Shown piece by piece: positions 12,605 to 31,062 of a DNA stretch of 64,000 nt (its first letter is position 1; each line of letters starts with the position of its first letter). The translations under genes were made by a program, and so were the position numbers. Location: contig OZ242195.1 of assembly GCA_965205975.1 (NCBI GenBank), positions 2,784,001-2,848,000 on the forward strand, in the 5' to 3' direction. This DNA is from Candidatus Latescibacterota bacterium. GTDB taxonomy: Bacteria > Latescibacterota > UBA2968. Below the pieces are notes generated by a model. It was given only the letters and a program-made list of their open reading frames with translations. It was not told the DNA's origin and made no database searches.

Positions 12605-13570
12605 TTAGAGAATTTGTCGCTGTCTCTTTTCTAGGAACCATTTTGCAAAACTTTCAATACCTTCTTCAATATCCACTTTAGGAGTAAAATTATACAGTCT
12701 TTTAGCTTTTGAAATATCCGCATACGTTAGACAAACGTCACCGGGTTGTTCAGGATATTGATCAATAACGGCTTTACACTTCAACGCATCCTGAATTATT
12801 TCAAGAGCATAGCTCAACTTAACAGTTCTCGAGTTACCAAAATTGACGATCTCAAAAGAATTTGGATATTTGAGTGCTGTGGCCAGACCATCTACAATAT
12901 CAGAGATGTAAGTATAGTCTCGTTGGGTACTTCCATCACCAAACATGCGTATAGATTCATTTGATATCATTTGTCTTGCAAAAATATGAAATCCCATATC
13001 TGGACGTTGACGAGGTCCATAAACCGTAAAAAAACGGAAACAGGTAATAGGAATACCAAATAAATGATGATATGCATGGCAGATGAGCTCAACACTTCGT
13101 TTTGTGGCAGCATAAGGCGATATCGGTTTGTCTGCTGTATCTGTTTCTTGAAAAGGTACCTTATCAGAATTTCCATATACAGATGAAGATGATGCCACCA
13201 AAAGATTTTCAATTCCCAACTTGCGGCAAGTTTCGAGCACTGTGATAGTGCCACCAACATTGACATCTTCATAACTCAGGGGAGTTTCTAAAGATGCTCT
13301 TACACCTGCTCGAGCTGCCAGGTGGACTACTTTTTTGATTTTGTGATTCTCAAACAGAACTTCAAAAGCATCTCGATTTCGGATATCCCCTTCAACAAAA
13401 GTATAATTGGGAAGATTCAGAACTTTAGAAATATTATCTTGTTTTATTTTTCGCGAATAACTGTTATTTAAATCATCGAAGACTACGACTCTTTCCCCTG
13501 ACTCAAGTAGTTTTTCTGCCAGATGGGATCCGATAAAGCCAGCCCCTCCTGTAATAAGTACGCTCGACAT
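12605..13570 (-). CDS. NAD-dependent epimerase, UDP-uronate 4-epimerase-like
   Basis: GGAGFIG, HLAARAGVR, SSSSVYG, PISPYAATK, RFFTVYGPRQRPDM. Confidence 0.9.
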   Translation of the reverse strand: MSSVLITGGAGFIGSHLAEKLLESGERVVVFDDLNNSYSRKIKQDNISKVLNLPNYTFVEGDIRNRDAFEVLFENHKIKKVVHLAARAGVRASLETPLSYEDVNVGGTITVLETCRKLGIENLLVASSSSVYGNSDKVPFQETDTADKPISPYAATKRSVELICHAYHHLFGIPITCFRFFTVYGPRQRPDMGFHIFARQMISNESIRMFGDGSTQRDYTYISDIVDGLATALKYPNSFEIVNFGNSRTVKLSYALEIIQDALKCKAVIDQYPEQPGDVCLTYADISKAKRLYNFTPKVDIEEGIESFAKWFLEKRQRQIL

Positions 13571-13591
13571 CGCGTTTTCCTCCTTTCCGTG

Positions 13592-14938
13592 CTATAGTTT
13601 AAAGACGTGATCTTTCTTTCCAGATACAGCCTGCGTGGCATTGCGCGTATCGACAATACAGCGCGCGTGCTTGACTATCCATTCGTAGTCCCAATCGCTG
13701 TGATGCGTCACAATGACCACACAATGGGCTTCTGTTAAATGTTTTTTATTTAAAGAAGTACTCTTCAAGTCCAAACTTTCCGTCTGCAAGTGATCTACAA
13801 ACGGATCGCAATACGAGACTTTCGCCCCTTTCTCCTGAAGCATTTCTATAATATCCAATGCTGGTGACTCGCGAATATCGCGCACATCGGGTTTGTACGT
13901 CACGCCCAATATCAGGATGTTCGAGCCTTTCAAACACCGCTCGTGTTCGTTGAGTGCGTCGGTGATTTTATCGACCACATACCCTGGCATGCTGCGCGTC
14001 ACTTCGCTGGCCAATTCGATAAAGCGCGCATTGTAATTCAAGGTCTTCAGCTTCCAGGCCAGAAAGTGCGGATCAACCGGGATACAATGCCCGCCCAACC
14101 CAGGACCGGGATAAAATGGCATGAATCCAAACGGCTTGGTCGCTGCGGCATCGATTACTTCCCAAACATCCACTCCCAGGCGGTCACACATCAGGGCCAC
14201 TTCATTGACAAGACCGATATTTACACTGCGAAATGTATTTTCCAGCAACTTGGTCATTTCAGCAGCCTGAGTCGATGAGACTGATACGACTTCGCCGATC
14301 GATTGTCGGTAAAAATGTGTGCCTATTTCTGTGCAAGACGGGGTAATACCACCCACGACTTTGGGCGTGTTGGTGATGGTATAAACCCTGTTGCCCGGAT
14401 CGACGCGCTCTGGGGAAAATACCAGAAAAAAGTCTCGACCGACCTTCAAGCCACTTCCTTCGAGAAGGGGCAATACCAGTTCATGGGTCGTACCTGGATA
14501 CGTCGTGCTCTCCAAAATCACCAGTTGTCCACGGCGCAGTCGGTCTTTGATTGCATTACAGGCTTGTACAATAAATGAGACATCCGGGTCGCGTGCTTTA
14601 TTTAAGGGTGTGGGCACACATACCACGACTACATCGGCTTCATTGAGTGCGTTGCATTCTTGTGTTGCTGTCAATTTTCCTACAGTTTTAAGACTTGTCA
14701 CTTCAAATTCCGATACACCCTGCACATCGGACTTTCCCGATTCTACCAGATCTACTTTGCGCGCCGATGTATCGATTCCCGTGACGGAAAATCCCACCTT
14801 GCCCAATGCCACAGATAAAGGCAATCCCACATATCCTAATCCCATCACTGCCACCTGTGCCTCGTGTGACGCGATCTTCTCCTCCAGAATCTGTGTGGAA
14901 TCGACGCTTCCCCAGGGTAATCTTTCTGTCAGGGCCAT
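13592..14938 (-). CDS. Nucleotide-sugar dehydrogenase (UDP-GlcNAc/ManNAc 6-dehydrogenase, WbpA/WecC family)
   Basis: GLGYVGLP, ESTTYPGTT, SPERVDPGN, GGHCIPVDP, DIRESP. Confidence 0.92.
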   Translation of the reverse strand: MALTERLPWGSVDSTQILEEKIASHEAQVAVMGLGYVGLPLSVALGKVGFSVTGIDTSARKVDLVESGKSDVQGVSEFEVTSLKTVGKLTATQECNALNEADVVVVCVPTPLNKARDPDVSFIVQACNAIKDRLRRGQLVILESTTYPGTTHELVLPLLEGSGLKVGRDFFLVFSPERVDPGNRVYTITNTPKVVGGITPSCTEIGTHFYRQSIGEVVSVSSTQAAEMTKLLENTFRSVNIGLVNEVALMCDRLGVDVWEVIDAAATKPFGFMPFYPGPGLGGHCIPVDPHFLAWKLKTLNYNARFIELASEVTRSMPGYVVDKITDALNEHERCLKGSNILILGVTYKPDVRDIRESPALDIIEMLQEKGAKVSYCDPFVDHLQTESLDLKSTSLNKKHLTEAHCVVIVTHHSDWDYEWIVKHARCIVDTRNATQAVSGKKDHVFKL

Positions 14939-14983
14939 TGTGTCATCCTCCCATAGTAAATCTATTTGATTTTCAGGACAGGA

Positions 14984-16066
14984 TTAACTTTTTAATACAG
15001 CAACAATTCGCTCTGCGGTATTGCCGTCCCACAACTCGGGCAAGCGACCGAATTTATAACGCCCATTCAAAACAGATTCAGCCTCTGCAACAATGCGTTC
15101 GGGACAAACGCCCACCAGTGTATTCGTCCCAATATCTATCGTCTCTGGGCGTTCTGTATTCTCTCTAAGCGTCAAACACGGCACACCCAAAGCCGTTGTC
15201 TCTTCTTGCAATCCGCCAGAATCTGTCATCACACATATTGCATTCTTCTGAAGTTTCAAAGAATCGAGATAGCCCACCGGATCCATAAGTTTGATATGAT
15301 CCATCATCTCAAGCCTTTGCAAAAAACCGAATTGAGACAGGCGATTGCGGGTTCTCGGATGCAAAGGCCACGCAATTGAACATTTGAGGGCTTGCAACGC
15401 GGAGACAATGTCGGCCAACGTATCTGGACAATCGACATTTGAGGCGCGATGGAGGGTTAGAAAAACGTACTCTTGAACTGACAAACCGTGTATATCCAGG
15501 ATGCGGGATTCATCGGCTTTGGGAGATAGTAACATCAGGGAATCGATCATCACATTGCCCACAAAATGAATGCGGTGATCTTCTATGCCTTCGCGCCTCA
15601 GATTTTCACACGCCTGCTTCGAAGGCGCAAACAATAGATCAGATATGGCATCCACCACGATTCGATTGATCTCTTCGGGCATCGACCTATCCCAACTTCG
15701 CAACCCCGCCTCTATATGTCCAACGGGAATTTGCAATTTTGCTGCATCCATCGCACATGCCAGAGTGGAATTGACATCACCAACGACAAGAACCCAATCC
15801 GGCCTTTCCAATGACAAAACCTCCTCAAACCCCATCATGATCTGCGCTGTCTGATACGCGTGACTGCCCGACCCCACATTTAATTCATAATGAGGTATGG
15901 GAAGATTTAAGTCTCGAAAAAAAATCTCGGACATCCGATCATCGTAGTGCTGTCCCGTATGCACCAGAATCGGATCAAATAAATCGGGTACCTCAATCAG
16001 TTGATTCCACAGTGGGGCAACTTTCATAAAATTGGGCCGCGCACCCGCAACAAGGATAATTTTCAC
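14984..16066 (-). CDS. wecB: UDP-N-acetylglucosamine 2-epimerase (non-hydrolysing)
   Basis: GTG start after GAAGGAG; GARPNFMK, HTGQHYD, HIEAGLRS, MPEEINR, TDSGGLQEE, NTERP. Confidence 0.92.
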   Translation of the reverse strand: MKIILVAGARPNFMKVAPLWNQLIEVPDLFDPILVHTGQHYDDRMSEIFFRDLNLPIPHYELNVGSGSHAYQTAQIMMGFEEVLSLERPDWVLVVGDVNSTLACAMDAAKLQIPVGHIEAGLRSWDRSMPEEINRIVVDAISDLLFAPSKQACENLRREGIEDHRIHFVGNVMIDSLMLLSPKADESRILDIHGLSVQEYVFLTLHRASNVDCPDTLADIVSALQALKCSIAWPLHPRTRNRLSQFGFLQRLEMMDHIKLMDPVGYLDSLKLQKNAICVMTDSGGLQEETTALGVPCLTLRENTERPETIDIGTNTLVGVCPERIVAEAESVLNGRYKFGRLPELWDGNTAERIVAVLKS

Positions 16067-16079
16067 CTGTATTCTCCTT

Positions 16080-16859
16080 CTATTTAGAGGCTTCCGCCTG
16101 CCAAATCGGATACCGTATATCTGCCCGCTGCATCTCTCGTTGTAACCACTGATTAAACAGATGTTTGCGGATTTCCTTTTTAATCCTCTCGTCCAGCGTT
16201 GCTGGATAGAGTTGCTGTACCAGGTACAGCGCAAAGCCTTTTGATACTTTTTCTGGTCTCAAAATTTCACTCGGTGAAGCAGCAAAAACACGCGCAGCAA
16301 TCCCCTTTGGCAACTGCTTGCGCCGAACACGACCCAAAAAGCCACTACCTGATCGCGTATGTGCATCTTGAGAAAACCGACGCGCCATCGCGTAAAAGTC
16401 CGCACCATCTTCTCGTATCTGCAAATCAACCTCGTCAATCACACCCTTATCCGTGTGAAAAATCCAGCAAATCTCCGCTTCGTCAAATTCCAGTGTGTGC
16501 TGTGCAAAATAGGATTCGATCTGTCCTTTGGCAATCTTCTCAGACAGCAAATACTCCAACCGCCTCACCTCGGCATCTTCTGTCACATCCTGAAGTGTAA
16601 TACCTCGCTTTGCAAGATAGGCCTCTGTATCTTCCACCCGTTCCAGGCGATGTTGATACCGCCAGTCATCTACCCTGCGCTGAATATCTTCCTGTGCTGC
16701 ACAAACACCCTCGCGCCGGGCGAGTTCCCGGATCAATTCCCTGCGCGCAAACCCATCAAAGAAACGCAGATTATCAGCAACACCCATCTGCCGCACGATA
16801 TGGCGCACTGATACCTCGGTACCATTGACCCAAATCAGTGTCGCATCATCTACCATCAC
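16080..16859 (-). CDS. PpiC/parvulin-like peptidylprolyl isomerase associated with the peptide exporter
   Basis: ADFYAMARRFSQD...GSGFLGRV rotamase motif; overlaps the HlyD stop. Confidence 0.8.
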   Translation of the reverse strand: MMVDDATLIWVNGTEVSVRHIVRQMGVADNLRFFDGFARRELIRELARREGVCAAQEDIQRRVDDWRYQHRLERVEDTEAYLAKRGITLQDVTEDAEVRRLEYLLSEKIAKGQIESYFAQHTLEFDEAEICWIFHTDKGVIDEVDLQIREDGADFYAMARRFSQDAHTRSGSGFLGRVRRKQLPKGIAARVFAASPSEILRPEKVSKGFALYLVQQLYPATLDERIKKEIRKHLFNQWLQREMQRADIRYPIWQAEASK

Positions 16860-18238
16860 AATGCCCCCTCTTGCACATCGTACTTCGCCGACTCGTAAAG
16901 CTGTCGCAAGGGAGAAAGCAACATCAGCAAGATTGATTGGCGATCTGTCATCATCTCAGCCGTGCCCTTCATACCAAACATCAGAGGTTTATCATATCCT
17001 TTCACACGCATCGTATTTTCTTCTAACTCAACAACGCACTTAAATATCGGACCAATACGTTCATCAATCACCGCATCTGGCGAGATGGATGTAAGCCACC
17101 CGCGTTTGATGCCAAAATCCTGAAAAGCATACGCATCGTATTTCAGCTTGACCAATTGCCCGGGCTTGAGCAAGCCCACATCTTTATTCAACACCATCAC
17201 TTCTGCAACCATCGGCGCTGAGGCCGGTGCCAGTGCAACCAAAGGTTGCCCCTTACTGATCACCTGTCCCATCGCATTCACCATCACCTGTGTTACAATC
17301 CCCGATTCAGGTGCCAGAATCAAATCTGACTCAGCTTCCAGGGTGCGATCAATGCGTTTGCGCGCCTGTTCCAATCGCAATTGTGCAGTCTCATAAGCGT
17401 GTTGCATCTGCGACGCCTCCCGCTCGTGAGCAATGCGCGCCTCCAAAATTTGACGCTTGAGATCCTGCACAGCCATTTCATTCTTGTATATCTCTGACAT
17501 ACGCGAGGGAAGCGCGGACAGAGCACTCAAATACTGCACGCGCGCGCGATTCATATCTGCCCGGCTGATCAATTCGCGCTCAAACAGCGTCTTCTGCTGC
17601 AAAAACTCCCCTTTCAAGTGATCAATCTCAGCCTGACGAAACCCAATCTGCGCTTGCAACCCCACGTCAGAGGTTTTGGTTTTCGATCCTACAACACCGG
17701 CCACATCGCTTTGATAATCTTCCAGCGCATCCCGATGTGCCTCCATAAACCGCTGCAAAACAGAAAGACGTTGTTCCAATGCCCCTATCGTCTCTCGATT
17801 CAACCTCGCCCTTTGTGGCAACACCGTCTTGAAATCGTACTCTGCCTTTTGAAAAGCCATTTCAACCTGCTCCCATTCCCGCAACTCTCCCCAGGTCTCC
17901 CAGGATTTGAGCTTGAACAATACCCGCCCTTTCTCGACATGATCCCCTTCTTTCACGCCAATCAACTCGATCTCACCGCCTCGCTGTGCCTGCATTGTCT
18001 TCACCTGTCCGAGGGGCACAAGCCGAAAAGGTGCTGATGCCACCACATCCACCTCGCCCCACCACGCCCAAGTAATGGCAACAATCATAAATAGCAGGAT
18101 AATATAGAGCAATGCACGACCCCAAAAGGGTCGCAAAGACCTCATAAACGCATGCACCTCCTCTGCGGCGTCATCTTGTCCCTGAATTACACCAGGAGAC
18201 ATTGTCTCTGCTGGTGTCTCTAAAAGCGGTTCTGCCAT
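16856..18238 (-). CDS. HlyD-family type I secretion adaptor
   Basis: N-terminal TM helix, VKEGDHVEKG, coiled coil, KDVGLLKPGQLVKLKYDAY. Confidence 0.92.
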   Translation of the reverse strand: MAEPLLETPAETMSPGVIQGQDDAAEEVHAFMRSLRPFWGRALLYIILLFMIVAITWAWWGEVDVVASAPFRLVPLGQVKTMQAQRGGEIELIGVKEGDHVEKGRVLFKLKSWETWGELREWEQVEMAFQKAEYDFKTVLPQRARLNRETIGALEQRLSVLQRFMEAHRDALEDYQSDVAGVVGSKTKTSDVGLQAQIGFRQAEIDHLKGEFLQQKTLFERELISRADMNRARVQYLSALSALPSRMSEIYKNEMAVQDLKRQILEARIAHEREASQMQHAYETAQLRLEQARKRIDRTLEAESDLILAPESGIVTQVMVNAMGQVISKGQPLVALAPASAPMVAEVMVLNKDVGLLKPGQLVKLKYDAYAFQDFGIKRGWLTSISPDAVIDERIGPIFKCVVELEENTMRVKGYDKPLMFGMKGTAEMMTDRQSILLMLLSPLRQLYESAKYDVQEGAL

Positions 18239-18254
18239 TATGAGGCTCCTTAAA

Positions 18255-18278
18255 AGCAATCAGCAGTCAGCTATCAGC
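18255..18278. repeat. Short intergenic heptamer tandem repeat (AGCnnTC)
   Basis: AGCAATC AGCAGTC AGCTATC AGC. Confidence 0.5.
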
Positions 18279-18336
18279 CCGCCCAACCACACCACCCTAA
18301 AACTACACCACCTTACTCACCCCAGTCTCCAGCCCC

Positions 18337-21300
18337 TCATACTACTTGCAACTGCTGACTGCACATGTGATAATACAAACCCTGCTGCACCATCAACTCA
18401 TCGTGCGTACCCATCTCCACAATATGACCCTTATCTAAGACCACAATCGCATCTGCATCGCGCACCGTACTCAACCGATGCGCGATAATCAACGCCGTGC
18501 GATCATCCAAAAACAGATCTAAATTCGCCTGTATCGCCTGTTCTGAATCTGTATCCAACGCATTGGTCGCTTCATCAAAAATCAAAATCTTGGGATCATT
18601 ATACAGCGCCCGTGCAATCGCGATCCGTTGCCGTTGTCCACCCGATAATCCCACACCCTGCTCACCCACCTTTGTCTCATAGCCCAAAGGCATATCGCTT
18701 ACGAAATCGTGCACACACGATAGCTTTGCCACTTCCAAAATGCGATCCATATCCGCATCTGTCTGACCAATAGCGATATTTTCTGCAATCGTGCCAGAAA
18801 ACAAAAACGGCTCCTGCATCACCATACCCACCTGCCGCCGCAGCCAATGGGGATCCAGATCCCGCATATCCATTCCATCCAGCGTCACACGCCCTTCTGA
18901 CGGATCAAACAAACGGGGTACCAGCTTGACCAACGTGGTTTTACCCGCGCCACTGCGTCCCACAATTGCAACTTTCTGACTCGGTTCAAGAATCAAGTCG
19001 ATGTTATTCAACACATAAGGCTCATCAGAACCGACACCGTATCTAAAAAACACCTCATCAAAAACCACGCGCCCTTCCAAATGCTTTAAGATCAAACCCT
19101 GACCCTGTTGCCGCGCATCTTCCATCTGCGTGTCATACACATCATTTAACCGATCTAACGCTATACGCGCTTCCTGCACCTGTGGCCATATCCCGATCAA
19201 TCCCATAATTGGGCCCATCACATTGCCAATCAGCGCATTAAACGCCATCAACTGTCCCACCGACAGGTTCCCTTCAATCACCAATGAAGCGCCATACCAC
19301 AAAATCACCGTACTGCTCAACAAATTGATCACGCTTCCGATCCCCCCAAACAACATCTGCATTTTTAACCGCTGAAAGCCAATCTGAATCTCCTTTGTGA
19401 ACTTACCTTCCCAATGCCACCGCGTCGTGTGCTCAACTGCCTCGGCTTTGACCACATCAATGCCATGCAGCGAATCAATCAAGACCGATGATTGTTCGGC
19501 ACGCGCCAGAAAAGCGCGCTGACTGAAAGACTTCAAAATGGGCGTGTAAATCAACGTAAGACCCACAGAGAGCGGCACAAAAACCAGCATAACCAGCGTC
19601 AGTTCCGCATTGTAATAAAACATCAGACCCAGATAGACAAAGAGCATGATAAAATCCAGAACCGCAGAAACCGTCGTACCCGTCAACAAACGCTGAATCG
19701 TTGCATTCTCCCGAAACCGCGTGGTCAAATCGCCCGTGCGCCTGAGCGCAAAAAACTGCATGGACAGCGCCAATAAATGCCGATAAAAACGCGACAACAT
19801 CGCAATGCTCAACCGCGCACTCACATACCCGATTAAATAGACGCGCAACGTCGATGTACCCATCTGGAACAACGCGACGACCACCATACCCACCAGCATC
19901 AAATTCAACAAATCCTCGTCGTGATGCACTAAGACCTGATCGACAATCGTCTGCATAAAAATGGGCGATGCCAGACCAAACAAACTGAGCACTAAAGACG
20001 CCAGCAACACTTCAATCAAAATGCCTGTATAGGGCTTTATCAGAGGGAAAAACCGCTTAAAAGAAGACTGAGAGGGTTCATTCTCTGCCACCTGGTCCGT
20101 GTATTCCAACAACAGCGCCATATTTGTCCAGCCCTTCTCAAACTCTGCTCGCGACAGCTTGCGAATGCCCACGCTGGGGTCCGCTATCTTCACTTCTTTT
20201 TTATTCATCTGATACAAGACCACAAAATGATTGCCTTCCCAGTGTAGAATAGCTGGCAATTCTGTTCGCATCAGAGCTTCATAACCCGTACGCACGCCGC
20301 GCGTGACAAAACCTATGGTTTCCGCAGCCTCGGCCAATGCCGCCATCGATGTGCCATACCGCGACACATTGGACATATCGCGCAACCTGTTTAATCCAAT
20401 CGGCATCTTGTAATACTTACAAATCATGCCCAAACACGCTGCACCACAATCTGATTGATCGTGTTGCTTCAAAAATGGGAAATGCAACAACGTGGGCACT
20501 TGTGGTTTTGCACCGTCTATTCTGATATTAACCACATTGGATGCTGTATGAGACTCTGTATCTTTTTGGGTAATAGAACGCACAACAGGTGGTTCAGACA
20601 CAGAGCGCAATTCCCCCCTTGATCCCTCTTTTCCACGCGATATACGCCCTCTCTCCAGTGCTTCGTCAAATCCCGGCATCATAGCTTTTAACTTATTAAA
20701 ATCGCTTTTATCTATATAAAAGAGCACACTATCACGCCGACTGCGAATCACCCTCTTATCACCTGACAAATTCTCATCACCAAAATAATCACCTGGCCGT
20801 AAAATTACCGTATCCCCACTTTCCAACACAGCCTCCAACTGACCGCTGCCAAGCAAATAAAACCGCTGCCCGAATTGCCCCTGGTCAACAATGGTCACGC
20901 CCTCCTCAACCGCATCGCGCTTCAACCGCGCGAACAACACCCGCATCGCTTCGTCTGGAACATCTCCTTTCAAAAAACGCGTAAAATCCCTATATGCAAT
21001 ACAGGAGACCTGTTCTTCGAGGTAGGCTTTCACGTCAGAACTTTTTCTCATAGCCTTAAAAAACTCGTCCTTCGGCACCCGCAACACATCCGCATCCTCA
21101 ACTGCCCGCACCGTTGCCCGATGCCCTTGCCTATTCAACAATGCCCCTTCGCCAAAATGATCGCCCGCATACAAATAGCCCACAGTTGTTGAATTGCCAT
21201 TCTCATCCTGCTTAATCACCCGCAACCGTCCAGACTCCACAATGTAAAACGCCTCACCCGCTTGCTCTTGTTGAAAAACAACACTTCCAAAGGGAAAACG

Positions 21301-23236: not shown

Positions 23237-23464
23237 CTACATTGGCCAGGGAAAAGGGTTAAAGATATCTTCCAAATAATCTTCCAAAATATCGTCCAGT
23301 GTTGGGTCAAAATCCTCACTGGTATCATCTTCTGGGACCGGAAAACATCCATCAGCACCAGAGAGCCGAGCAATTTCAAGCCTATTCAAATCGCTCGTTT
23401 TAATCGGCAGATTGGTCACACCTGCGACCGATTGCTCGGGATTTGATACAATTCGTCTCGTCAT
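23237..23464 (-). CDS. RiPP precursor P3 (acidic core, single Cys)
   Basis: AAGGAGGTGA RBS; leader ...LNRLEIARLSGA; core DGCFPVPEDDTSEDFDPTLDDILEDYLEDIFNPFPWPM. Confidence 0.75.
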   Translation of the reverse strand: MTRRIVSNPEQSVAGVTNLPIKTSDLNRLEIARLSGADGCFPVPEDDTSEDFDPTLDDILEDYLEDIFNPFPWPM

Positions 23465-23917
23465 TCCTCTCACCTCCTTTCTCCATAGCCTCAGCGCAAG
23501 CTACATCCCCGTGGCGCCGATCAGGGAGCTGTAAGCATATCGCTGATGGTATCGGATTCTGTAAAGGGTTTTATGGGGTGTGGCGCAATACTACCAGGAA
23601 CCCCACCATTCACTCACCGCATCTCCAATATCATCAATAATATCTTCAATAAGTGGATCGTGCTCAGACAGATCTTCCCCTGGCAAAATGCACCCACCTA
23701 ATGTATTCGCCATCTCACCACGCACCAGTTCGATTTCTTGACCAGGAAGTTGAACACAGGTAGCAGAAACTTGTTCTGGCATTGATGTAATGCGTTCAGT
23801 CATTTCTTTCACCTCCTTTCTCCATAGCCTCAGCGCAACAGCGTCTCCTGCACCTGTACATCGATCAGGGAGCCGTGAGCATATCGCTGAAGTGTCGAAT
23901 TTTGCGAAGCGTCTTAT
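23462..23917. repeat. Tandem duplication unit (GT 3' end, RBS region and precursor start)
   Basis: Identical 30-mer at 23470-23499 and 23809-23838; diverged copy of the GT 3' end at 23518-23574 versus 23862-23917. Confidence 0.85.
23591..23803 (-). CDS. RiPP precursor P2 (acidic core, predicted N-terminal Cys)
   Basis: AAGGAGGTGA RBS; leader ...LVRGEMANTLGG; core CILPGEDLSEHDPLIEDIIDDIGDAVSEWWGSW. Confidence 0.78.
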   Translation of the reverse strand: MTERITSMPEQVSATCVQLPGQEIELVRGEMANTLGGCILPGEDLSEHDPLIEDIIDDIGDAVSEWWGSW

Positions 23918-25268
23918 AAGCTCTATCGCGCGTCTCGCATAAGCCTATCAGAGCAGCTTCGACTTCGTTTGGGTGTAAATGTTGCATCAAATGAAGGCCC
24001 AAGCCTTCAATAAGGGACATATCTTGCCCAAAAAACGAAATGCGAGGCAACGGACCTTGCGCGCTTCCCAAATAGTTAAATCCTTTGGACACACTTTTCG
24101 GCACACCGGACATATCACACCCCTGTGTAAAACTCACGGTTATTGGTATCGGGCAGGCAGGTACATCGCGTTTGGTCCGCAGACTTTCAAACAGTGCCAT
24201 GTGCTGCTGTGCCGTATGATCCCAGGAAAATTCTAGTGCGCGTTTGCGAGCAGACTCACCCATTTCTACACGCTCCGTCTTGCTATCCAAAAAATCGCGC
24301 ACAGCATCTGAAATCACTTCTGGGGCGATATACCCCGTCACATTCAATGGCTCGTCTTCAAATCGCTCAATCTCGATCAACCGCCCACAACTGCCCAACA
24401 ACTCTGGCGCACCCGCAAAATTTGTCGCCACAACCGGAAGACCACACGCCATGCCCTCTATCACAGTGGAGGGACACGACTCATACGAATACACCGACAG
24501 CGCGCACAATACATCCAGCATATTGTAATACAGCGGCATATCCGTATAGGGTTGCGCGCCCAGAAAGATCACATTGGGCGGATGCGTCACGGGTGCGAAC
24601 TGCTTGCCAATCACCGCAAACAGCACATTGGGATTCAGATCGGCCATCCGCAAAAACGGATACGCACCCTTGCCCGGCTCAAACCGCCCGCAAAAACCCA
24701 CGACAGGCATCTCTAAAAAACGTTGATCACCCGTCTTATTCGCGACCTCCTTTCGCGCTTGCAACTTATCCATCGGCACAAACACCTCGGCATCTACCCC
24801 ATTGGTAATCGCATGCAAATACGATCTGTCAAACACCATCTTGCCCACTTCGTCAGCGACATACGCCGACTTGGGCGACAGGGCATCATAAGGCCGCAAC
24901 AGCGAATAACATTGAAGCACCTTATCTATAAAATCCCGATTGCGTCCAAAAGAACACGACAGCCGAATCACAATGGGTGCGGGACACACATGGCGAAAAA
25001 ATGCCAGGTCATCTACTTTGGGCTCAAACATCAGCACCCCATCAAAATCCTGCCGCGCAAACCACTGGCGAGACGCATCAATCGTCTCAAACTCAGGTCG
25101 AATACCGTGCAAATTCGGACCATAATCCACCGCTTCAGACGCTGGCATATACACATTGCAATACTTCGATAACGCCTGCACATGGTTAAAACCCGAAAGG
25201 GACGCCCCGCTATTCGACGCCATCACTTTTTCATGATCGTGATACGGATGTGACACATAAATTTTCAT
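23865..25268 (-). CDS. GT4 family glycosyltransferase with C-terminal extension
   Basis: NGVD, GRFEPGKG, ESCPSTVIEGMACGLPVV, FSW. Confidence 0.9.
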   Translation of the reverse strand: MKIYVSHPYHDHEKVMASNSGASLSGFNHVQALSKYCNVYMPASEAVDYGPNLHGIRPEFETIDASRQWFARQDFDGVLMFEPKVDDLAFFRHVCPAPIVIRLSCSFGRNRDFIDKVLQCYSLLRPYDALSPKSAYVADEVGKMVFDRSYLHAITNGVDAEVFVPMDKLQARKEVANKTGDQRFLEMPVVGFCGRFEPGKGAYPFLRMADLNPNVLFAVIGKQFAPVTHPPNVIFLGAQPYTDMPLYYNMLDVLCALSVYSYESCPSTVIEGMACGLPVVATNFAGAPELLGSCGRLIEIERFEDEPLNVTGYIAPEVISDAVRDFLDSKTERVEMGESARKRALEFSWDHTAQQHMALFESLRTKRDVPACPIPITVSFTQGCDMSGVPKSVSKGFNYLGSAQGPLPRISFFGQDMSLIEGLGLHLMQHLHPNEVEAALIGLCETRDRAYKTLRKIRHFSDMLTAP

Positions 25269-25286
25269 CTTTCACCTCATTAGGAA

Positions 25287-25383
25287 TCGGCTTTCAGCCA
25301 TCAGCTTTCAGTTCCCCGCCCAGACACCCAAAGGTAATAGCTTGCTTGTTTTGCTAACTGCTAACCACTGAACGCTGACTGCT
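25287..25383. repeat. Inverted arrays of heptamer repeats between the GT genes
   Basis: TCGGCTT TCAGCCA TCAGCTT TCAGTT ... GCTAACT GCTAACC ACTGAAC GCTGACT. Confidence 0.45.
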
Positions 25384-27943
25384 GCTCTATGAACTTTTGC
25401 GTTTGCTCGGCACCATCCAGGGATAGATGATGTTCGGACACAGAACTTTCGAGCATTTCGGCTATAGCTTTTGCCATCTTTTCCGCACTGAGTTGATCCG
25501 GATGTACCACCCCGGCAATGCCCAACCACATCAACTCCTGCGCGCGAAATTCCTGATCATCCATCGCAATGCTCGGCACCAGAATTGATGGGACCTGTGT
25601 CTCGAGCACATTCATACACGTATTGTAGCCCGCCCGGCTAATCGACAAATCCGCGTGTTTCATCCACGCCAAAAAATTGGACGTAAAGCGCTCAATGCGA
25701 AACGGACCATCACCGCACAACCCGCGCAAAGCCTCAAAATGCTTTTCATCTATAAACGCACCAGCAAAAATCACCATCTCGCGTCCATCGTGCGCATCGT
25801 CCCGCTCCAATTGTTTCCACGCTTCAATACACGGCGCAACAAGCGCAAGCCCCTCAGCCCCGCCGCCAGCACTGACCAACACATACCGATCAGGCGCACG
25901 ATCAGGCCGAGATGCGTCCTCGAGTTTCTCAGAGACAAACCCCGTATAAACCACGGGAATACCGATATCAGCAGTCCAGGGAAAGTGATCTTCCAACCGG
26001 GATAGTTGGGAATCGCCATGCACCAATACCGCATCGAAATACTGATTCAACACGGGCACGACCTCCTCGTAATACCGCCGATTAAAAGCCACATACTCGT
26101 GATGTATCCCGCCAAAAGGCACCGAATAAAACCGCATCGCATCTCCATCGCGTCTCTGGACAAGCGCGACAGTCGGTTGCAACACATTGCTTTTTGCCCG
26201 CGTTGGAATATCGCGCAGAGAACACAGCACTTTCGCGCCGGGATTGACCTCATTGAGTCTGACTATTGTATTGAGGATTTCGCTCTTAAGCGACCATCGG
26301 GAAAAAGGGAAAAACTCAATACAAAACACATCGGGGCGAATCTGTTCCATCGCTTCGGAAAGCCTGACCTGGCGCTCGCGCATCACAGCCTGCAAATCGC
26401 GCTCCTTATCAACAGACTCAATGCCCTGTGCGCCCGAGCGAAGGGGCGGCAGGGAAATACGCGTCACCCGTTCATCGAGATCGGCTTCGGGAACAGGGCG
26501 CCCGCCATCGATGAAAAAAACATCGCATGTCTTGACTAACGCATTGACAATCTGTCGATTGCGAAAATGGTGTCCCACGCCGATAAGATGCTGGCTGTAA
26601 AAAGCAACGCGCGTGCGTCTGGTTTTGGCCGCTGATAATGGTTCTACACGTGAACTTTCCGCCTGGACGAGACAAACGGATGAACCGCTCTGACACTTGT
26701 ACACCGCTTGCGCAGATTCATATATCCCGCGATAGCCTTCCACAACCCGCGTCCATGTACGCTCTGACCGCACCCATTCACTACTCTTTTTCCCCAATTG
26801 CATCCGCAGTGAGGGATTCTCGATAAGTTCGGCACATGTTTGGGTAAGACTCTCGACATTATCTGCCGCAAAAACGCGCCCGGTTTCGCCATCTGTAACC
26901 ACCTCCGTAAGTGCGGCTACATCACTCACAACAACGGCTTTTTTCATCGCCATTGCCTCATAAGGCTTCATCGGCGTAACCAGTTCGGTAACGCGGCTAC
27001 GCGTGCGGGGAATAACAAAAACATCTAACATCGCGTAATAGGCAGAAACCTGGTCGTGTGGTATTTCACCCGTAAAAATCACTATATCCGAAAGACCGCG
27101 TTCAAGTGCCTCGCGTTGCAACGCCGGCAAATCTCGTCCACCACCCACAATCAACACTTTGAGATTGGCATACTGCGTGCGAAGAACCTCACACGCCTGC
27201 AACAACAACCGTAATCCCTCCAGCGACCGCACCAGACCGATATAACCTAACACCACATCGCTCAATTCAATACCTATGCGATTGGCAAGTTCACCTGACT
27301 TATTTTTGGGGGCATATTGCTCTATTGCTACCCCATTGGGCACCACGCCAATTTTCTCTTCGTCAACACCTTCGCGTATGCACTCGGCTTTTAATACCTC
27401 GGACAACGTCACTACTGCATCGGCTTGTCGCATCGCATTGACATGTTGCTCGTGCTGCTGGCGATACGCCTCTGAAGCGGGAACCAGCATCCCTTGCGCC
27501 ACACCGCTATCGTGCCACAACCCCCGCACCTCGTACACCACAGGCAGACCATAGTGATGCCCTATATCAATCGCAACCTGCGCGTTTCTACCCGGCGAAG
27601 CGGCGTGCAACACATCGGGTTTTTCCATTTCTATTGCCCGCGCAACACGCTTGCGAAAGTGTTGCTCCTGTCCCGCGTGATAGATTCGCGGAGTATCTGG
27701 TAATTGAAATTTGCCCAGGCGTTCTGATAGACGTGTGGTGTATTTTTCAGAAGTATTTCTCAAATAAGGCACTTCATTGATATATTCGACACCATCAGCG
27801 AGTTGTTCAGACACACCCCACCGCGTGAGCACCACAGGATCGAAGCCGAGTACTTTCTGCGTGTTGATGATATACTGGCTTCGCAAACTGTATCCGCTTT
27901 GTCGGTGTGGCAGCGAAATATCCAGAATATGTAGAATTTTCAT
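25361..27943 (-). CDS. Bifunctional glycosyltransferase: GT4 domain plus GT28-C-terminal-like GT-B domain
   Basis: HILDISLP..SGYSLR, YEVRGLW, PMKPYEAMA; second domain YSQHLIGVGH, SAGGG, ISRAGYNT. Confidence 0.88.
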   Translation of the reverse strand: MKILHILDISLPHRQSGYSLRSQYIINTQKVLGFDPVVLTRWGVSEQLADGVEYINEVPYLRNTSEKYTTRLSERLGKFQLPDTPRIYHAGQEQHFRKRVARAIEMEKPDVLHAASPGRNAQVAIDIGHHYGLPVVYEVRGLWHDSGVAQGMLVPASEAYRQQHEQHVNAMRQADAVVTLSEVLKAECIREGVDEEKIGVVPNGVAIEQYAPKNKSGELANRIGIELSDVVLGYIGLVRSLEGLRLLLQACEVLRTQYANLKVLIVGGGRDLPALQREALERGLSDIVIFTGEIPHDQVSAYYAMLDVFVIPRTRSRVTELVTPMKPYEAMAMKKAVVVSDVAALTEVVTDGETGRVFAADNVESLTQTCAELIENPSLRMQLGKKSSEWVRSERTWTRVVEGYRGIYESAQAVYKCQSGSSVCLVQAESSRVEPLSAAKTRRTRVAFYSQHLIGVGHHFRNRQIVNALVKTCDVFFIDGGRPVPEADLDERVTRISLPPLRSGAQGIESVDKERDLQAVMRERQVRLSEAMEQIRPDVFCIEFFPFSRWSLKSEILNTIVRLNEVNPGAKVLCSLRDIPTRAKSNVLQPTVALVQRRDGDAMRFYSVPFGGIHHEYVAFNRRYYEEVVPVLNQYFDAVLVHGDSQLSRLEDHFPWTADIGIPVVYTGFVSEKLEDASRPDRAPDRYVLVSAGGGAEGLALVAPCIEAWKQLERDDAHDGREMVIFAGAFIDEKHFEALRGLCGDGPFRIERFTSNFLAWMKHADLSISRAGYNTCMNVLETQVPSILVPSIAMDDQEFRAQELMWLGIAGVVHPDQLSAEKMAKAIAEMLESSVSEHHLSLDGAEQTQKFIEQQSAFSG

Positions 27944-27993
27944 CGCTCGATTCTCCAAGGATCGTAGGCATACAAGGGGTTCATCATCTACAA

Positions 27994-28926
27994 TTAGAAT
28001 TTTCTACTCGCCCATTTGTTATACGAAAACAGCGAGTTTCTAAAAAACATATTGACGATTGTCATATAACAGGCATTCTGTTTTCTATTTAGGGCGTCTG
28101 GTAGGAGCGTAGAATTTCGATCTACTAACTCCTGGATGTGCTCAGGCGTCACGCCATAGATATTGCGAAGGGTATTGAACAGACCAATCAAATCTGTTTC
28201 ACAGCAGTTATTCGCTTTAGCCAGTGCTCTCAAATACACATCACCGATATGCGATAATGCCTTTGCTATTCGGGAGCGGGTTTCACTGACAGACTGAACA
28301 TCCGAAAGTCTGGAGGGCGCATCCCAACATGGTGTCACGGACCTGATCTTACGCAACACCGCCAGATGGTGATCTTCGCGGATCATTTCCACTTTAAAAC
28401 TACCGGAATAGACGGACAGCCAGTTCTCGACTATTTGCTTCTCATAAGACCTTCTGAAATCATCCAGAATGACCAGACCACCAATCTTGATCTGATCATA
28501 AACCTGGTAGAGACATGCCTCCCGACCTCGCAAGGTATAGACAGGCGGACCATCAATAATCACGCAATCCATCTCTTCCTCCCAAAACACCCCATCTTCA
28601 TAAGTCAAAAATTCCGCATCTCCATAAGATTCAAGTGTAACCGGACGATATTTGATCGATAGATTGCGCTTATCCCAGAATGATCTCATCAGACTCGTGG
28701 TCTCTGCAAAATTCCGCCAATCGCCTTCTATAGACAGAACCTCGGCTTCCGAAAACGCCATTGCCAGACGGATAGAACTCGGACCACTTCCAAATTCGAG
28801 AATTCTTTCTACTGGAGACATCTGACGAAGTAAAGTTTCTATTTTCTCAAACGCTGTCTCACCAATGCTCCAACCTGTGTTCAGATTAAGCTGTTCCGAC
28901 ATTTTGAGGTCTGAAATTTTATGCAT
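27994..28926 (-). CDS. Class I SAM-dependent methyltransferase
   Basis: ILEFGSGPSS, VIIDGPP, GGLVILDD. Confidence 0.82.
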   Translation of the reverse strand: MHKISDLKMSEQLNLNTGWSIGETAFEKIETLLRQMSPVERILEFGSGPSSIRLAMAFSEAEVLSIEGDWRNFAETTSLMRSFWDKRNLSIKYRPVTLESYGDAEFLTYEDGVFWEEEMDCVIIDGPPVYTLRGREACLYQVYDQIKIGGLVILDDFRRSYEKQIVENWLSVYSGSFKVEMIREDHHLAVLRKIRSVTPCWDAPSRLSDVQSVSETRSRIAKALSHIGDVYLRALAKANNCCETDLIGLFNTLRNIYGVTPEHIQELVDRNSTLLPDALNRKQNACYMTIVNMFFRNSLFSYNKWASRKF

Positions 28927-28942
28927 TATTCACTTCTTTCTT

Positions 28943-29176
28943 CTAATAGCCATCATGTGCAAATACATACACATACCAGGAAGCCTGTTCTGGCCCTACC
29001 CCATTAGGGGGAGCATCACAATCCCAAATTTCAGCGAGTCGCGTCTTTTCCTGCTGGGCTTCCCGCTTAGAATTATAATGTCCCACAATCCTCCAATTTC
29101 TGAAGGAGCGATACCTGGATCGCCAATATCGCTTTCGCTCGTCAGGGTTCATAGTAATTCCAACTCGACAGGCCAT
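28943..29176 (-). CDS. Small basic hypothetical protein, GIY-YIG-like
   Basis: MACRVGITMNPDERK...SKREAQQEK...WYVY; GGGGAG RBS. Confidence 0.55.
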   Translation of the reverse strand: MACRVGITMNPDERKRYWRSRYRSFRNWRIVGHYNSKREAQQEKTRLAEIWDCDAPPNGVGPEQASWYVYVFAHDGY

Positions 29177-29350
29177 ATTCACTCCCCATGGTTTATGAGG
29201 TCACTTCCAAATCATAACGTCGCTGTAACAAAGACGCTTCTGCTTCTATAATTTCCATTCAAAGCCCAAAGCCTCGGTTCTTCTCGAACAGATTTAGTGG
29301 ATGATTCGCTTAAGAACAGGAGGCCTTGGGCTTTCAAAAGTTTGCGATTC

Positions 29351-30781
29351 CTATGATGCCACTTCCAGATCATATCGCCGCTGCAACAAAGACGCATCCG
29401 TCTCTGCAATCTCCATACATATCTCCATCGCCAGTTCATAGCGATAGCGCGTCTGTTCACAAGCAACAGGATTGGGATACATCGGATCACCCGTCGTCGT
29501 CCGCGCCTCCCAAAGACACCCGCCACCACACAAATTGCGCGCCCAGCACGTCTTGCACTCAGGCCGATTATTGACATTGAACTGCGCGTCAAAATGCTGC
29601 TGTTTTTCGCGATCAATACCCGCGAACACATCACCCATCTTAAACTCGGGCGCATCGGCCAAACTCGAACAAAAATAAATCGACCCATCCGCTGCAATCG
29701 CCAAATACTGCTTACCTCCCAGACACCCGTGACAGGATTTTTGGCGCGTCAAAAGTTTTTGAATCCTCGGATCAAACTCTTCACACTCTTCACCATTTAG
29801 AATAGCTTTGAGCGCACGTCGGCTCCGCCTGTAAATTTGCTGCTTCAAAACAGGTATGTGTTCTTCCCCAATAGCATAAGGCGCATCCGGTGAAACAACA
29901 GCCGAGCTAACAAGTGCGTTTTCAGTACCCAGAGAACGCAACGCATCGGCAATCTGATCCTCATCCATATCATACGCTGTCATAACAGCCTGCAGGTACA
30001 CGCGCTCAGGCACCTCATCAGTCAGTTTCTCCACATTCTTTGCCACAACATCATAAGTGCCAGAACCATTGTGAAACTTGCGAATGCGATCCTGTGTCTT
30101 ACGCCCCCCATCCAGGCTGACCTTAATCTGAAACTTTTCATCAACCAAAAACTGCTTCATCTCTTCGGTCAACAGCGTGCCATTGGTCACAATGCCAAAA
30201 CCAACCTGCACACCCAACCGCGCGCCCAGGGATTTGGCAAACGGGACAAGCTCCTGCATCAATGGAAAATTCAGGAGTGGCTCCCCGCCAAAAAAATCAA
30301 TCTGGCACCGTCCGAACACCTGGGCCTCAGTAACAATCCAGCGTATCGCCTGCTCTGCAACGTCTGGTTGCATCAGCATCGCCTTACCGCCGTAATCTCC
30401 ACCGTGGGCAAAGCAATAAGCACATTGGATATTGCACGAATGCGAAACGTGCAACGACACCTGCAAACGATCTGTCTGCGAAACCCCACAGGCAGCCACC
30501 CCTTCTGTTGTCGGCACATGGGATACCACAGGTAGTGCACCATCCGAAATCAAACCCACCTGAGCCAATTCCTCAATAGCCTCGACAATCTCCTCTGCCT
30601 CGTATTGATCGGCTAACTTCTGAACAACTTGTGAAGCCGACAACCCCTCACAACACTCTAAAACCGACAGGAAAAGAGTATCCAATTGAAAAAACAGACC
30701 CGTCTCTACCTGATAGACAATTGGCTGTTTTTGTTCTTCAGTTTGAAAAAGATGCATGTCGCATTTCTGAATGGATAGCAT
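29351..30781 (-). CDS. Radical SAM/SPASM peptide maturase with N-terminal RRE (CteB/PapB-like architecture)
   Basis: CNIQCAYC, FFGGEPLLN, SLDG; SPASM GC...YFC...CKTCWARNLCGGGC-x18-C; PqqD-like N-terminus. Confidence 0.92.
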   Translation of the reverse strand: MLSIQKCDMHLFQTEEQKQPIVYQVETGLFFQLDTLFLSVLECCEGLSASQVVQKLADQYEAEEIVEAIEELAQVGLISDGALPVVSHVPTTEGVAACGVSQTDRLQVSLHVSHSCNIQCAYCFAHGGDYGGKAMLMQPDVAEQAIRWIVTEAQVFGRCQIDFFGGEPLLNFPLMQELVPFAKSLGARLGVQVGFGIVTNGTLLTEEMKQFLVDEKFQIKVSLDGGRKTQDRIRKFHNGSGTYDVVAKNVEKLTDEVPERVYLQAVMTAYDMDEDQIADALRSLGTENALVSSAVVSPDAPYAIGEEHIPVLKQQIYRRSRRALKAILNGEECEEFDPRIQKLLTRQKSCHGCLGGKQYLAIAADGSIYFCSSLADAPEFKMGDVFAGIDREKQQHFDAQFNVNNRPECKTCWARNLCGGGCLWEARTTTGDPMYPNPVACEQTRYRYELAMEICMEIAETDASLLQRRYDLEVAS

Positions 30782-30807
30782 ACGAGGTACTCCTCAGAAC
30801 AAAGATG

Positions 30808-30987
30808 TCACTCGGCGTGATCAAAATCGTCCCAATCGTCATCGTCATTGGGAAAGGGCAAGGGAGGAACAGCAATAGGAGTCGGAGAACAGCCATATTC
30901 AAAACTATCCGTCGTCTCATATGTGTGAATACCTCCCTCTTTATCCATTGTTCCATTAATCAAGGTCAACTTGTGCCGAGTCGTCAT
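30808..30987 (-). CDS. RiPP precursor P1 (ranthipeptide-type leader, single Cys, Pro/Asp-rich core)
   Basis: AAGGAGG RBS; MTTRHKLTLING...EYGCSPTPIAVPPLPFPNDDDDWDDFDHAE; immediately upstream of the rSAM gene. Confidence 0.78.
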   Translation of the reverse strand: MTTRHKLTLINGTMDKEGGIHTYETTDSFEYGCSPTPIAVPPLPFPNDDDDWDDFDHAE

Positions 30988-31045
30988 ATTATCCTCCTTC
31001 AATACAAAAATCTAAATGTCGTCACTGTCTTCGCTCCGTTTATAT

Positions 31046-31062
31046 TGCAAGATGCGTGCCAA
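31046..31062 (-). promoter_or_regulatory. Sigma54 promoter heading the RiPP operon
   Basis: Minus strand reads TTGGCACGCATCTTGCA, ~60 bp upstream of P1. Confidence 0.88.

Follow-up and report, generated by a model that had tools for sequence, protein, structure and literature searches.

Is a long run of co-oriented genes, with one promoter at its head and one terminator at its end, necessarily one pathway? The question is raised by an 18.5-kb run in the DNA of a Candidatus Latescibacterota bacterium. The stretch analysed (64,000 nt, here called the window) covers positions 2,784,001-2,848,000 of a single-contig 5.56-Mb genome; near-identical sequences come from several sources labelled sponge metagenomes. 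An earlier reading made from the letters alone (the sequence-only reading) had taken the run for one glycosylated radical S-adenosylmethionine (rSAM) peptide system with its own supply of amino-uronic sugar. Sequence comparisons give a different answer: judged from them, the run is a fusion of two independent cassettes, not one pathway. The explanation that we consider probable is a head-to-tail fusion of a sigma-54 rSAM peptide cassette (cassette A, 27994-36117) with a glycosyltransferase/double-glycine/exporter cassette (cassette B, 14984-27958), the latter predicted to glycosylate exported peptides, likely at the Cys that becomes the first residue after leader cleavage.

The two cassettes in relatives and in the genome

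Three proteins are referred to below by short names: GT467, a 467-aa GT4 glycosyltransferase; GT865, an 865-aa fused glycosyltransferase; and PCAT, the peptidase-containing ATP-binding cassette (ABC) exporter. Relatives were compared in three sets: 20 close GT467 loci from species-representative genomes (16 of the 20 with the full 10-kb upstream flank), nine divergent loci whose GT467 is 51-82% identical, and 20 other genomes of the genus, where an rSAM match was accepted at E <= 1e-30.

The genes of cassette A do not accompany GT467. The rSAM, methyltransferase and activator genes were found in 0/20 close and 0/9 divergent GT467 loci. All 20 other genomes of the genus have GT467 and 15 have the rSAM; in the nine that carry both on one contig the nearest pair is separated by ~142 kb. 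Five genomes of 97-99% completeness carry GT467 but gave no rSAM match at the threshold above. Cassette B, on the other hand, is conserved as a unit. Of the close loci, 17 extend far enough downstream, and in 16 of these the order precursors, PCAT, HlyD, PpiC was observed. The nine divergent loci retain a response-regulator/AraC gene, a GT4 gene, GT467 and precursors, and usually a GT28_C gene; PCAT, HlyD and PpiC are kept in 8/9 of them. The gene native to the position upstream of cassette B encodes the response-regulator/AraC protein.

The methyltransferase-like gene goes the other way. Outside this genome it lies within 3.5 kb of the rSAM gene in 16 of 22 match rows (15 genes) and never near GT467, and so, on this synteny, it is a partner of cassette A that travels with the rSAM; the part in sugar chemistry given to it by the sequence-only reading is withdrawn. 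The sequence downstream of it varies: it may hold patatin, tyrosinase or insertion sequence (IS) elements, or else an additional copy of the dehydrogenase gene together with a response-regulator/AraC gene.

Between 12.5 and 36.1 kb every large open reading frame (ORF) of the window is on the minus strand (ORF calling, Pfam, NCBIfam). The features are as follows.

31300-36117, minus strand: cassette A regulator, 1605 aa, with Ser/Thr kinase, AAA16/STAND, TPR, GAF, sigma-54 activator and HTH domains (Pfam)
31084-31109, minus strand: intrinsic terminator of the activator gene (10-pair stem, then T-run)
31046-31061, minus strand: sigma-54 (-24/-12) promoter TGGCACGCATCTTGCA (pattern search, conservation)
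30808-30987, minus strand: cassette A precursor, 59 aa (ORF sequence, homologue alignment)
29351-30781, minus strand: RRE-rSAM/SPASM maturase, CteB-like (PF04055, PF13186, weak PqqD PF05402)
28943-29261, minus strand: 77-aa ORF (28943-29176) and duplicated remnant of the rSAM 3' end (DNA comparison, inspection by eye)
27994-28926, minus strand: class I methyltransferase-like protein, 310 aa (weak evidence only, no family match)
25361-27958, minus strand: GT865, with an N-terminal GT4 half and a C-terminal GT28_C/GT1-like half (Pfam, NCBIfam); probable ATG at 27943
23865-25268, minus strand: GT467, the signature GT4 with a family-specific 100-aa C-terminal domain (Pfam, structure model)
23591-23812, minus strand: cassette B precursor of family 1 (ORF sequence, alignment)
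23237-23473, minus strand: cassette B precursor of family 1, second type (ORF sequence, alignment)
22747-23127, minus strand: cassette B precursor of family 2 (ORF sequence)
22297-22587, minus strand: 96-aa two-helix membrane ORF (sequence)
21355-22242, minus strand: CPBP (Rce1-like) intramembrane protease (PF02517)
18337-21351, minus strand: PCAT, 1004 aa, with two cNMP-binding domains, C39 and an ABC core (PF00027 in two stretches, PF03412, PF00664, PF00005)
16856-18259, minus strand: HlyD-type membrane fusion protein (Pfam, NCBIfam)
16080-16859, minus strand: PpiC-like protein, related to TIGR04500 'peptide maturation system' (82.6 bits, below the cut-off of 180)
14984-16234 (maximal ORF), minus strand: WecB, non-hydrolysing UDP-GlcNAc 2-epimerase (TIGR00236, 338.8 bits, cut-off 210); true start probably near 16066-16114
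13592-14938, minus strand: nucleoside-diphosphate N-acetylhexosamine (HexNAc) dehydrogenase, WecC/TviB-like (TIGR03026, 439 bits)
12605-13570, minus strand: SDR nucleotide-sugar epimerase/dehydratase (Pfam, NCBIfam)
12531-12560, minus strand: hairpin and T-run, the terminator closing the run (read by eye)

As an inventory the sequence-only reading was accurate: all the gene types that it listed are intact and co-oriented between the promoter and the closing terminator (ORFs, Pfam, NCBIfam), the four precursor-like peptides at 30808-30987, 23591-23812, 23237-23473 and 22747-23127 included. The GT-B domains are three in total, GT467 and the two halves of GT865 (the only Pfam matches being PF00534, PF13692, PF13579 and PF04101). 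Two ORFs had been missed, the 77-aa one (28943-29176) and the 96-aa membrane one (22297-22587), and the activator gene (31300-36117), which lay outside the earlier coordinates, belongs to the unit. A terminator scan and inspection of the window gave no convincing internal terminator within the run; the hairpin at 12531-12560 is absent from the scan output and was seen by eye only.

The same separation of the cassettes was found inside the genome, where the window proteins were searched by tblastn. Activator, 59-aa precursor and rSAM are present in three copies (window, 2.90 Mb and 3.08 Mb); GT467, precursors, PCAT, HlyD and PpiC are also present in three copies (window, 2.66 Mb and 0.25 Mb). 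Copies of the cassettes are 84-92% identical, and only in the window are A and B contiguous. By Pfam, the 2.90-Mb copy has only activator, precursor and rSAM, while the 2.66-Mb copy starts with an AraC-type gene and continues with the glycosyltransferase fusion, GT467, precursors, CPBP, PCAT, HlyD, PpiC and WecB, with no rSAM. Comparison of DNA resolves the window into a mosaic.

29352-36117: like the other cassette A copies
28944-29261: like the 77-aa ORF and the last rSAM bases of the 3.08-Mb copy (86% DNA identity)
27946-28943: no counterpart in the genome
14990-27945: like the 2.66-Mb copy of cassette B
13585-14948: 90% copy of a dehydrogenase gene at 0.16 Mb
12605-13584: no counterpart in the genome

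On this comparison the duplicated rSAM end at 28943-29261 is a scar of recombination, and the recombination is recent. Similarity to cassette B begins at 27945, two bases from the probable GT865 ATG; its native upstream region has thus been replaced. In the window cassette A would have displaced the response-regulator/AraC gene together with that region, and since the region is replaced, cassette B is predicted to be transcribed by read-through from the sigma-54 promoter. The second copy of cassette B in this genome (L004, 11702-12891) is interrupted by an IS element with transposase ORFs, and the AraC-type gene found upstream of that copy has been truncated (136 aa versus 268 aa in relatives); the copy in the window may thus be the intact one.

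Could the joint of A and B be an assembly error produced by multicopy cassettes of ~90% identity? Both cassettes do exist in three copies at 84-92% identity, and short-read contigs of three runs break between 27837 and 28057, so that the joint itself rests on the single-contig assembly, a point that counts against the fusion. Still, the joint is flanked by the genome-unique sequence 27946-28943, which is outside the repeat; exact contigs 28774-29408 and 28942-29408 (0 differences) bridge the start of the methyltransferase gene, the 77-aa ORF and the end of the rSAM gene; read depth was found in 30/30 bins in all three DNA runs; and the genome is one contig of 5.56 Mb. Four runs of one study contain 56-73% of the words of 22700-31100, and contigs of the three DNA runs match the unique parts exactly. 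An assembly error is, in our judgement, highly improbable. An RNA run, X22, yielded short pieces only, at 95-99% likeness and in 14/30 bins; they probably come from relatives and were not used for expression.

The integrated pathway of the sequence-only reading, in which the rSAM, the methyltransferase and the glycosyltransferases act on the same acidic peptides to give cross-linked, methylated HexNAc-uronic glycopeptides, has several facts in its favour. All genes are co-oriented, with short gaps, from one sigma-54 promoter to one terminator; the precursors of cassette A and of family 1 are both acidic and single-Cys; in two other genomes an extra dehydrogenase copy follows the rSAM-methyltransferase pair at 2-7 kb; and the third copy of cassette A is followed by genes for a DUF354 protein and a UDP-glucose dehydrogenase-like protein. 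These are outweighed by the absence of the rSAM set from all 29 related loci, its distance from GT467 in the nine contiguous genus genomes and the lack of an rSAM match in five more, by the mosaic with its duplicated rSAM end, which indicates recent recombination, and by the cassette A precursor, which has a different leader and no conserved double-glycine (GG) site. We regard one integrated system as improbable, and the claim is not upheld.

The sigma-54-driven radical-SAM cassette

Cassette A comprises a kinase-fused sigma-54 activator, a promoter, an acidic single-Cys precursor, an RRE-rSAM/SPASM enzyme and the methyltransferase-like protein. Two activator paralogues, 79-82% identical, adjoin the other two rSAM copies in the genome. 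The promoter is located ~58 nt upstream of the first precursor ATG, just after the terminator of the activator gene. A search of the whole window with the sigma-54 pattern gave 3 matches at <=1 mismatch versus 3.1 expected by chance, so the count alone is not evidence; the case for the site comes from its position and its conservation, the core GGCAC-N5-TTGC being complete in 10 of 11 cassette A copies and partly visible in the eleventh. A ribosome-binding site, GAAGGAGGA, is found upstream of the precursor ATG.

The 11 aligned precursors of this type share M-x-x-R-R-K-L-x-L-I-N-G, one conserved Cys in G(G)C-x-P (11/11) and a common tail, VPPLPFP-DDDD-W-D-D-F-D; the acidic tail of the window peptide is VPPLPFPNDDDDWDDFD. 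The 'EGG' of the window precursor corresponds to EGD, EGS or EGH in the others and is thus not a double-glycine site.

The rSAM protein matches the CteB structure (PDB 5wgg) over residues 20-454 with E = 3.4e-59 and has an rSAM core (PF04055), a SPASM domain (PF13186) and a weak N-terminal RRE (PF05402). It scores below the curated equivalog cut-offs of TIGR03974 (259 versus 425 bits), NF047865 (230.7 versus 340) and TIGR04064 (249.2 versus 518.7). The methyltransferase gene announced by the sequence-only reading is present, but its 310-aa product has no significant Pfam or NCBIfam match, and its assignment to class I rests on weaker evidence: a glycine-rich LEFGSGPSS motif, an Atlas score of 0.96 to Methyltransf_24 clusters and weak matches of the same region to O-methyltransferases in PDB (2gpy, E = 0.0053).

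In the mechanism that we propose, the sigma-54 promoter would become active through the kinase-fused activator, the CteB-like rSAM/SPASM enzyme would put one cross-link on the 59-aa acidic precursor at its single conserved Cys, and the methyltransferase-like protein would modify the precursor further. Judged from the sequences, cassette A most likely introduces one thioether-type cross-link and then a methyl group.

Some observations on the surroundings of cassette A are added here. The 77-aa protein (MACRVGIT..., Trp/Arg-rich, no family match) is encoded directly 3' of the rSAM gene in three loci: the window (28943-29176), L008 and L041. L008 (3,072,001-3,092,000 of the same genome) is the third cassette A copy, with its activator gene split into two ORFs; the 77-aa ORF, the DUF354 gene and the UDP-glucose dehydrogenase-like gene follow, and further downstream an S8 peptidase-DUF1611 fusion is encoded, along with a beta-propeller protein and a MacB-type permease. 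In L059 (G011:C1:5318001-5338000), a locus from one relative, an IS element comes after cassette A, and with it two M16 peptidase genes and genes for a third type of cNMP-C39 exporter (55% identical), HlyD and a PpiC-like protein; paralogues of this exporter type, 53-57% identical, occur in several genomes of the genus.

Past the closing terminator, the minus strand has a further exact sigma-54 element, TGGCACGCTTTTTGCA, at 12337-12352; three direct copies of ACTGTTTCATTTGAAACAC precede it (block 12337-12500), each of which contains an inverted repeat. Downstream of the element come a second CPBP gene (11638-12276) and an integrase-AAA gene (9847-11523); at 1.573-1.576 Mb the genome has another copy of the entire block, 84-91% identical. 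On the other side, an AAA-ATPase_like/PDDEXK_9 gene (36512-38068) has at least seven further near-full-length copies in the genome at 72-82% DNA identity, and integrase and transposase genes (39318-42121) flank the cluster.

The glycosyltransferase and export cassette

Cassette B combines GT4 and GT1/GT28-type glycosyltransferases with double-glycine precursors, CPBP, a C39 exporter with cNMP domains, HlyD, a PpiC-like protein and WecB. The sequence-only reading was correct that the double-glycine precursors adjoin GT-B enzymes and a C39 exporter; as the PCAT counts given above attest, this arrangement is kept in close and divergent loci alike.

The precursors fall into two families that share a leader design, with the successive motifs R-x-x-(S/T)-x-(P/S/D), F/V-x-x-C-x-x-L-P, L-x-x-x-E-M and G-G. 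Leaders are conserved, ~40 residues long and end in GG or DG (GG is invariant in 18/18 aligned family-1 precursors); cores are hypervariable and of unrelated types, either strongly acidic with a C-terminal Trp motif, Gly-zipper, with Cys-rich tails, or rich in Ser/Gly/Asn. Most family-1 cores have a single Cys, at the first position after the leader (+1), and a few have a second one. In the precursor at 23591-23812, which probably starts with MTERI at the ATG at 23803, the leader ends in EMANTLGG and the acidic core starts with CILPGED and ends in WWGSW. In the one at 23237-23473 the leader ends in LSGADG and the core runs from CFPVPEDD to PWPM. The family-2 precursor (22747-23127) has the leader FASCAALPVQQTTLNVDEMAGIDG and a Gly-zipper core ending in CTCSCN.

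The C39 domain of PCAT has visible Gln, Cys, His and Asp motifs, at what we take to be the positions of the catalytic site. With a double-glycine leader and a C39 ABC exporter encoded side by side, leader cleavage is predicted. The system is distinct from NHLP and Nif11 systems by score: exporter and adaptor fall below the respective cut-offs (TIGR03796, 581.2 versus 853.3; TIGR03794, 37.1 versus 156.2), and the precursors have no NHLP or Nif11 Pfam match. The PpiC-like gene is conserved after HlyD in related loci. CPBP, often multicopy in these loci, is a possible immunity protein, and so is the 96-aa membrane protein, homologues of which were found in two close loci (L022, L029) and two divergent ones (L050, L051).

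GT467 defines a narrow family, found in 24 of 168 genomes of the phylum and 3 of 49 genera. Search scores drop from 495 bits directly to generic GT4 enzymes at 52 bits, and below 46% identity only generic GT4 enzymes are found; a metagenome scan with the GT467 profile returned only 3 short contigs, none with a gene neighbourhood that could be used. The EX7E glutamates are invariant in the family. The structure model (pLDDT 88.8) has a GT-B fold closest to MshA, GlgM and BshA. Its C-terminal 100 residues form, in the full model, a strand-strand-strand-helix-helix-helix domain (pLDDT 64.8 when modelled alone), for which Foldseek gave no match at E <= 0.001 and VIA-align only generic three-helix matches (Z <= 6.6). 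A profile of this domain searched against 1.84 billion representatives found only members or fragments of the family and one 3921-aa repeat protein (P0069), in which 21 separate stretches match the beta-hairpin part (profile positions 6-44). An RRE at this C-terminus was considered and dropped as evidence (hhalign against the N-terminus of the rSAM, probability 0.6).

The GT4 half of GT865 is closest to the PEP-CTERM/XrtA stp3 family TIGR04063 (330.6 bits, below the cut-off of 442.05); Pfam and NCBIfam detected neither an exosortase nor Wzx/Wzy nor a priming transferase in the run. The C-terminal half weakly resembles GT1 natural-product transferases (OleD-type), and in half of the loci the GT28_C unit stands alone, as a protein of 415-471 aa.

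What remains of the proposed sugar supply is WecB. The gene was found in 8/8 testable close loci with the GT4-domain fusion and in 0/9 loci with only a stand-alone GT28_C gene, a distribution that fits use of UDP-ManNAc by the added GT4 domain. The dehydrogenase and epimerase adjoin cassette B in the window only and had no match in the 20 close GT467 loci; as far as these two genes are concerned, homologous clusters largely lack the sugar genes, and conservation of an own uronic-sugar supply is partial. In many genomes of the genus a housekeeping copy of the dehydrogenase is located ~100 kb from one cassette B site. The window gene is an extra copy, 90% identical in DNA to the one at 0.16 Mb, which in this genome is followed by a different epimerase. 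The SDR epimerase of the window is unique in the genome, and its best PDB matches are 5u4q and the 6zl6 group, a UDP-glucuronate 4-epimerase.

Are the peptides the acceptors? A sister genus (g10) offers a natural comparison. PCAT orthologues of 62-76% identity are present in 15/15 g10 genomes and GT467 in 0/15; the g10 loci share the leaders, CPBP and DUF3267 genes, PCAT, HlyD and PpiC, and have no GT467 or GT865 homologue. Where the enzymes are absent, family-1-type cores start with F, L, I or V (16/16 peptides of 11 g10 loci); in GT467 loci they start with Cys in 20 of 21 peptides and with Ser in the remaining one, and the divergent GT467 loci have cores rich in Ser, Thr, Gly and Asn. Since the leader, its own Cys included, is alike with and without the enzymes, it would serve the shared export machinery, while the nucleophile at +1 goes with the enzymes. 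This contrast is the best pointer to S-glycosylation at Cys(+1). Furthermore, in searches with Pfam and NCBIfam neither the run nor the related loci gave a flippase, a polymerase or a priming transferase, which leaves PCAT as the sole exit for any cytoplasmic glycan, carried on peptide.

Several points weigh against the proposed glycosylation of the peptides. Cys versus hydrophobic is essentially one contrast of two sister genera, and shared ancestry could produce it. The family-2 precursors of the same loci have no Cys at +1, and the acceptor rule is thus not general. Locus L017 of the close set has GT467 with no precursor or PCAT match. The closest solved GT4 enzymes (MshA, GlgM, BshA and PimA/B) use small-molecule or lipid acceptors, not peptides, and the C-terminal domain of GT467 has no match to an RRE or to anything else. 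The link of WecB to the GT4 domain breaks down in both testable divergent loci (L044 and L047), which have a GT4 gene with no WecB within 1.8-3 kb. Finally, other glycosylation is possible in g10, where a TMEM260-like (GT-C) gene was found nearby in two Pfam-scanned loci. This gene encodes a protein O-mannosyltransferase-like protein of 731 aa (L056, 17055-19250; L057, 3139-5334) on the strand opposite to the precursors; it may reflect unrelated synteny or an alternative glycosylation route.

Some of the same facts would suit a different role, in which the glycosyltransferases and sugar genes build or alter an envelope glycan or glycolipid, for example as self-protection against unmodified bacteriocin-like peptides. 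GT467 has relatives with small-molecule and lipid acceptors, the GT4 half of GT865 is nearest to an exopolysaccharide family (TIGR04063), and the leader/PCAT/HlyD/PpiC core of g10 works with none of these enzymes, which makes them accessory. Immunity by modification of the envelope reportedly also has a precedent in bactofencin A, the unusual immunity of which is the subject of PMC3809560. We consider this role unlikely, though a serious competitor: the run and related loci gave no match to a flippase, a polymerase, a priming transferase or an exporter of polysaccharide; GT467, of a narrow family confined to cassette B, is in every locus encoded directly upstream of the precursors; and whether a core opens with Cys/Ser or with a hydrophobic residue goes with the presence or absence of the enzymes.

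If the peptides are indeed the acceptors, retaining-type GT467 would modify the precursors first, in the cytoplasm; the glycan would then be lengthened by the GT1/GT28-like domain and by the stp3-like GT4 domain, the latter with UDP-ManNAc from WecB. C39 would then cut after the double glycine during ABC/HlyD export, gated by the two cNMP-type domains, and self-protection would fall to CPBP and the 96-aa membrane protein. In the window, the extra dehydrogenase and the unique epimerase would widen the donor pool to HexNAc-uronic acid. A bolder version of this reading we put forward tentatively: GT467 may be the founding member of a GT-B peptide glycosyltransferase family whose target is the Cys at the cleavage site, modified by S-glycosylation, with the GT1/GT28-like and GT4 domains extending the sugar to a ManNAc(-uronate) oligosaccharide, and the products may be a new class of anionic exported peptides that are made ribosomally and modified after translation (RiPPs) in sponge symbionts, placed here under a kinase-fused sigma-54 switch.

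Relation to known systems and significance

Known glycosylated ribosomal peptides, to our knowledge, almost all carry a single neutral sugar added by a GT2 enzyme. The sequence-only reading knew of no described class with the present combination, and we too found no description of the cassette B system in the open-access literature and bioRxiv. Among systems for glycosylated exported peptides, cassette B is a GT-B variant, narrow in distribution and uncharacterised.

Its nearest counterparts are the glycocins (sublancin, glycocin F and pallidocin, with a SunS-like enzyme and a SunT-type exporter), which also have a double-glycine leader and a C39 ABC exporter. In glycocins the sugar is attached to Cys or Ser, and the gene of the enzyme responsible adjoins that of the precursor (PMC12457901, PMC6405829). 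Cassette B differs from them in having GT-B enzymes (GT4, GT1/GT28-like) and not SunS-like GT2/GT-A ones, in its up to three transferase domains, which imply an oligosaccharide, in the strongly acidic window cores with one Cys at +1 and no nested disulfide pairs, and in its host, a Gram-negative-type uncultured symbiont whose exporter has a HlyD partner and two cNMP-type domains. The cacaoidin (lanthidin) cluster of Streptomyces cacaoi has GT4 and other glycosyltransferases and its own nucleotide-sugar genes (PMC8068269); its sugar is carried on a Tyr of a lanthidin scaffold, and its genes include those of a rhamnose pathway and of GT2 enzymes. It has neither a double-glycine/PCAT export core nor a HexNAc 2-epimerase, and cassette B has both.

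Cassette A resembles the SCIFF/ranthipeptide systems (CteA-CteB, PapB) in its full-length CteB homologue with a small precursor gene directly upstream. It differs in a maturase that scores below the equivalog cut-offs, in a precursor with one Cys and not several thioether sites, and in the 1605-aa kinase-fused sigma-54 activator and methyltransferase-like partner. For Latescibacterota metagenome-assembled genomes from sponges, antiSMASH calls of 'ranthipeptide' and 'RiPP-like' have been listed, with no further analysis (PMC12993501).

Clusters with GG precursors, PCAT, rSAM and an accessory glycosyltransferase or methyltransferase have been described in silico in Bacteroidales (TIGR04148/TIGR04157; PMC10352776). 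The window scores are below the cut-offs of these families (79.5 versus 300 for TIGR04148; 27.1 and 53.7 versus 400 for TIGR04157), and rSAM and glycosyltransferase are here in separable cassettes. Fusions of an RRE to GT2 enzymes are also on record in the literature. The 'srp' proteusin clusters of sponge symbionts were considered and rejected as a counterpart, being NHLP/YcaO systems (PMC9426513).

For the exporter the closest case is HetC of Nostoc PCC 7120, which likewise has an N-terminal cNMP-type domain, C39 and an ABC core in one protein; its cNMP-type domain, which is required in vivo, has been found to bind ppGpp in vitro (PMC10986499). PCAT of the window has two such domains, and candidate substrates are encoded beside it, while HetC has no known substrate. 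Cassette B may thus offer candidate substrates for a HetC-like, nucleotide-gated peptidase exporter.

The GT-B enzymes encoded directly before double-glycine precursors would, if they act on them, widen the known chemistry of glycopeptides. Cassette B offers for this a dedicated HexNAc 2-epimerase and a concrete acceptor site, and the sister-genus clusters, which lack both the enzymes and the cysteine, provide a natural comparison with and without them. For the organism, the locus illustrates how peptide-maturation cassettes are shuffled in flexible islands of uncultured sponge symbionts, a shuffle that in this case sets an export and glycosylation cassette behind the signal-sensing promoter of another cassette.

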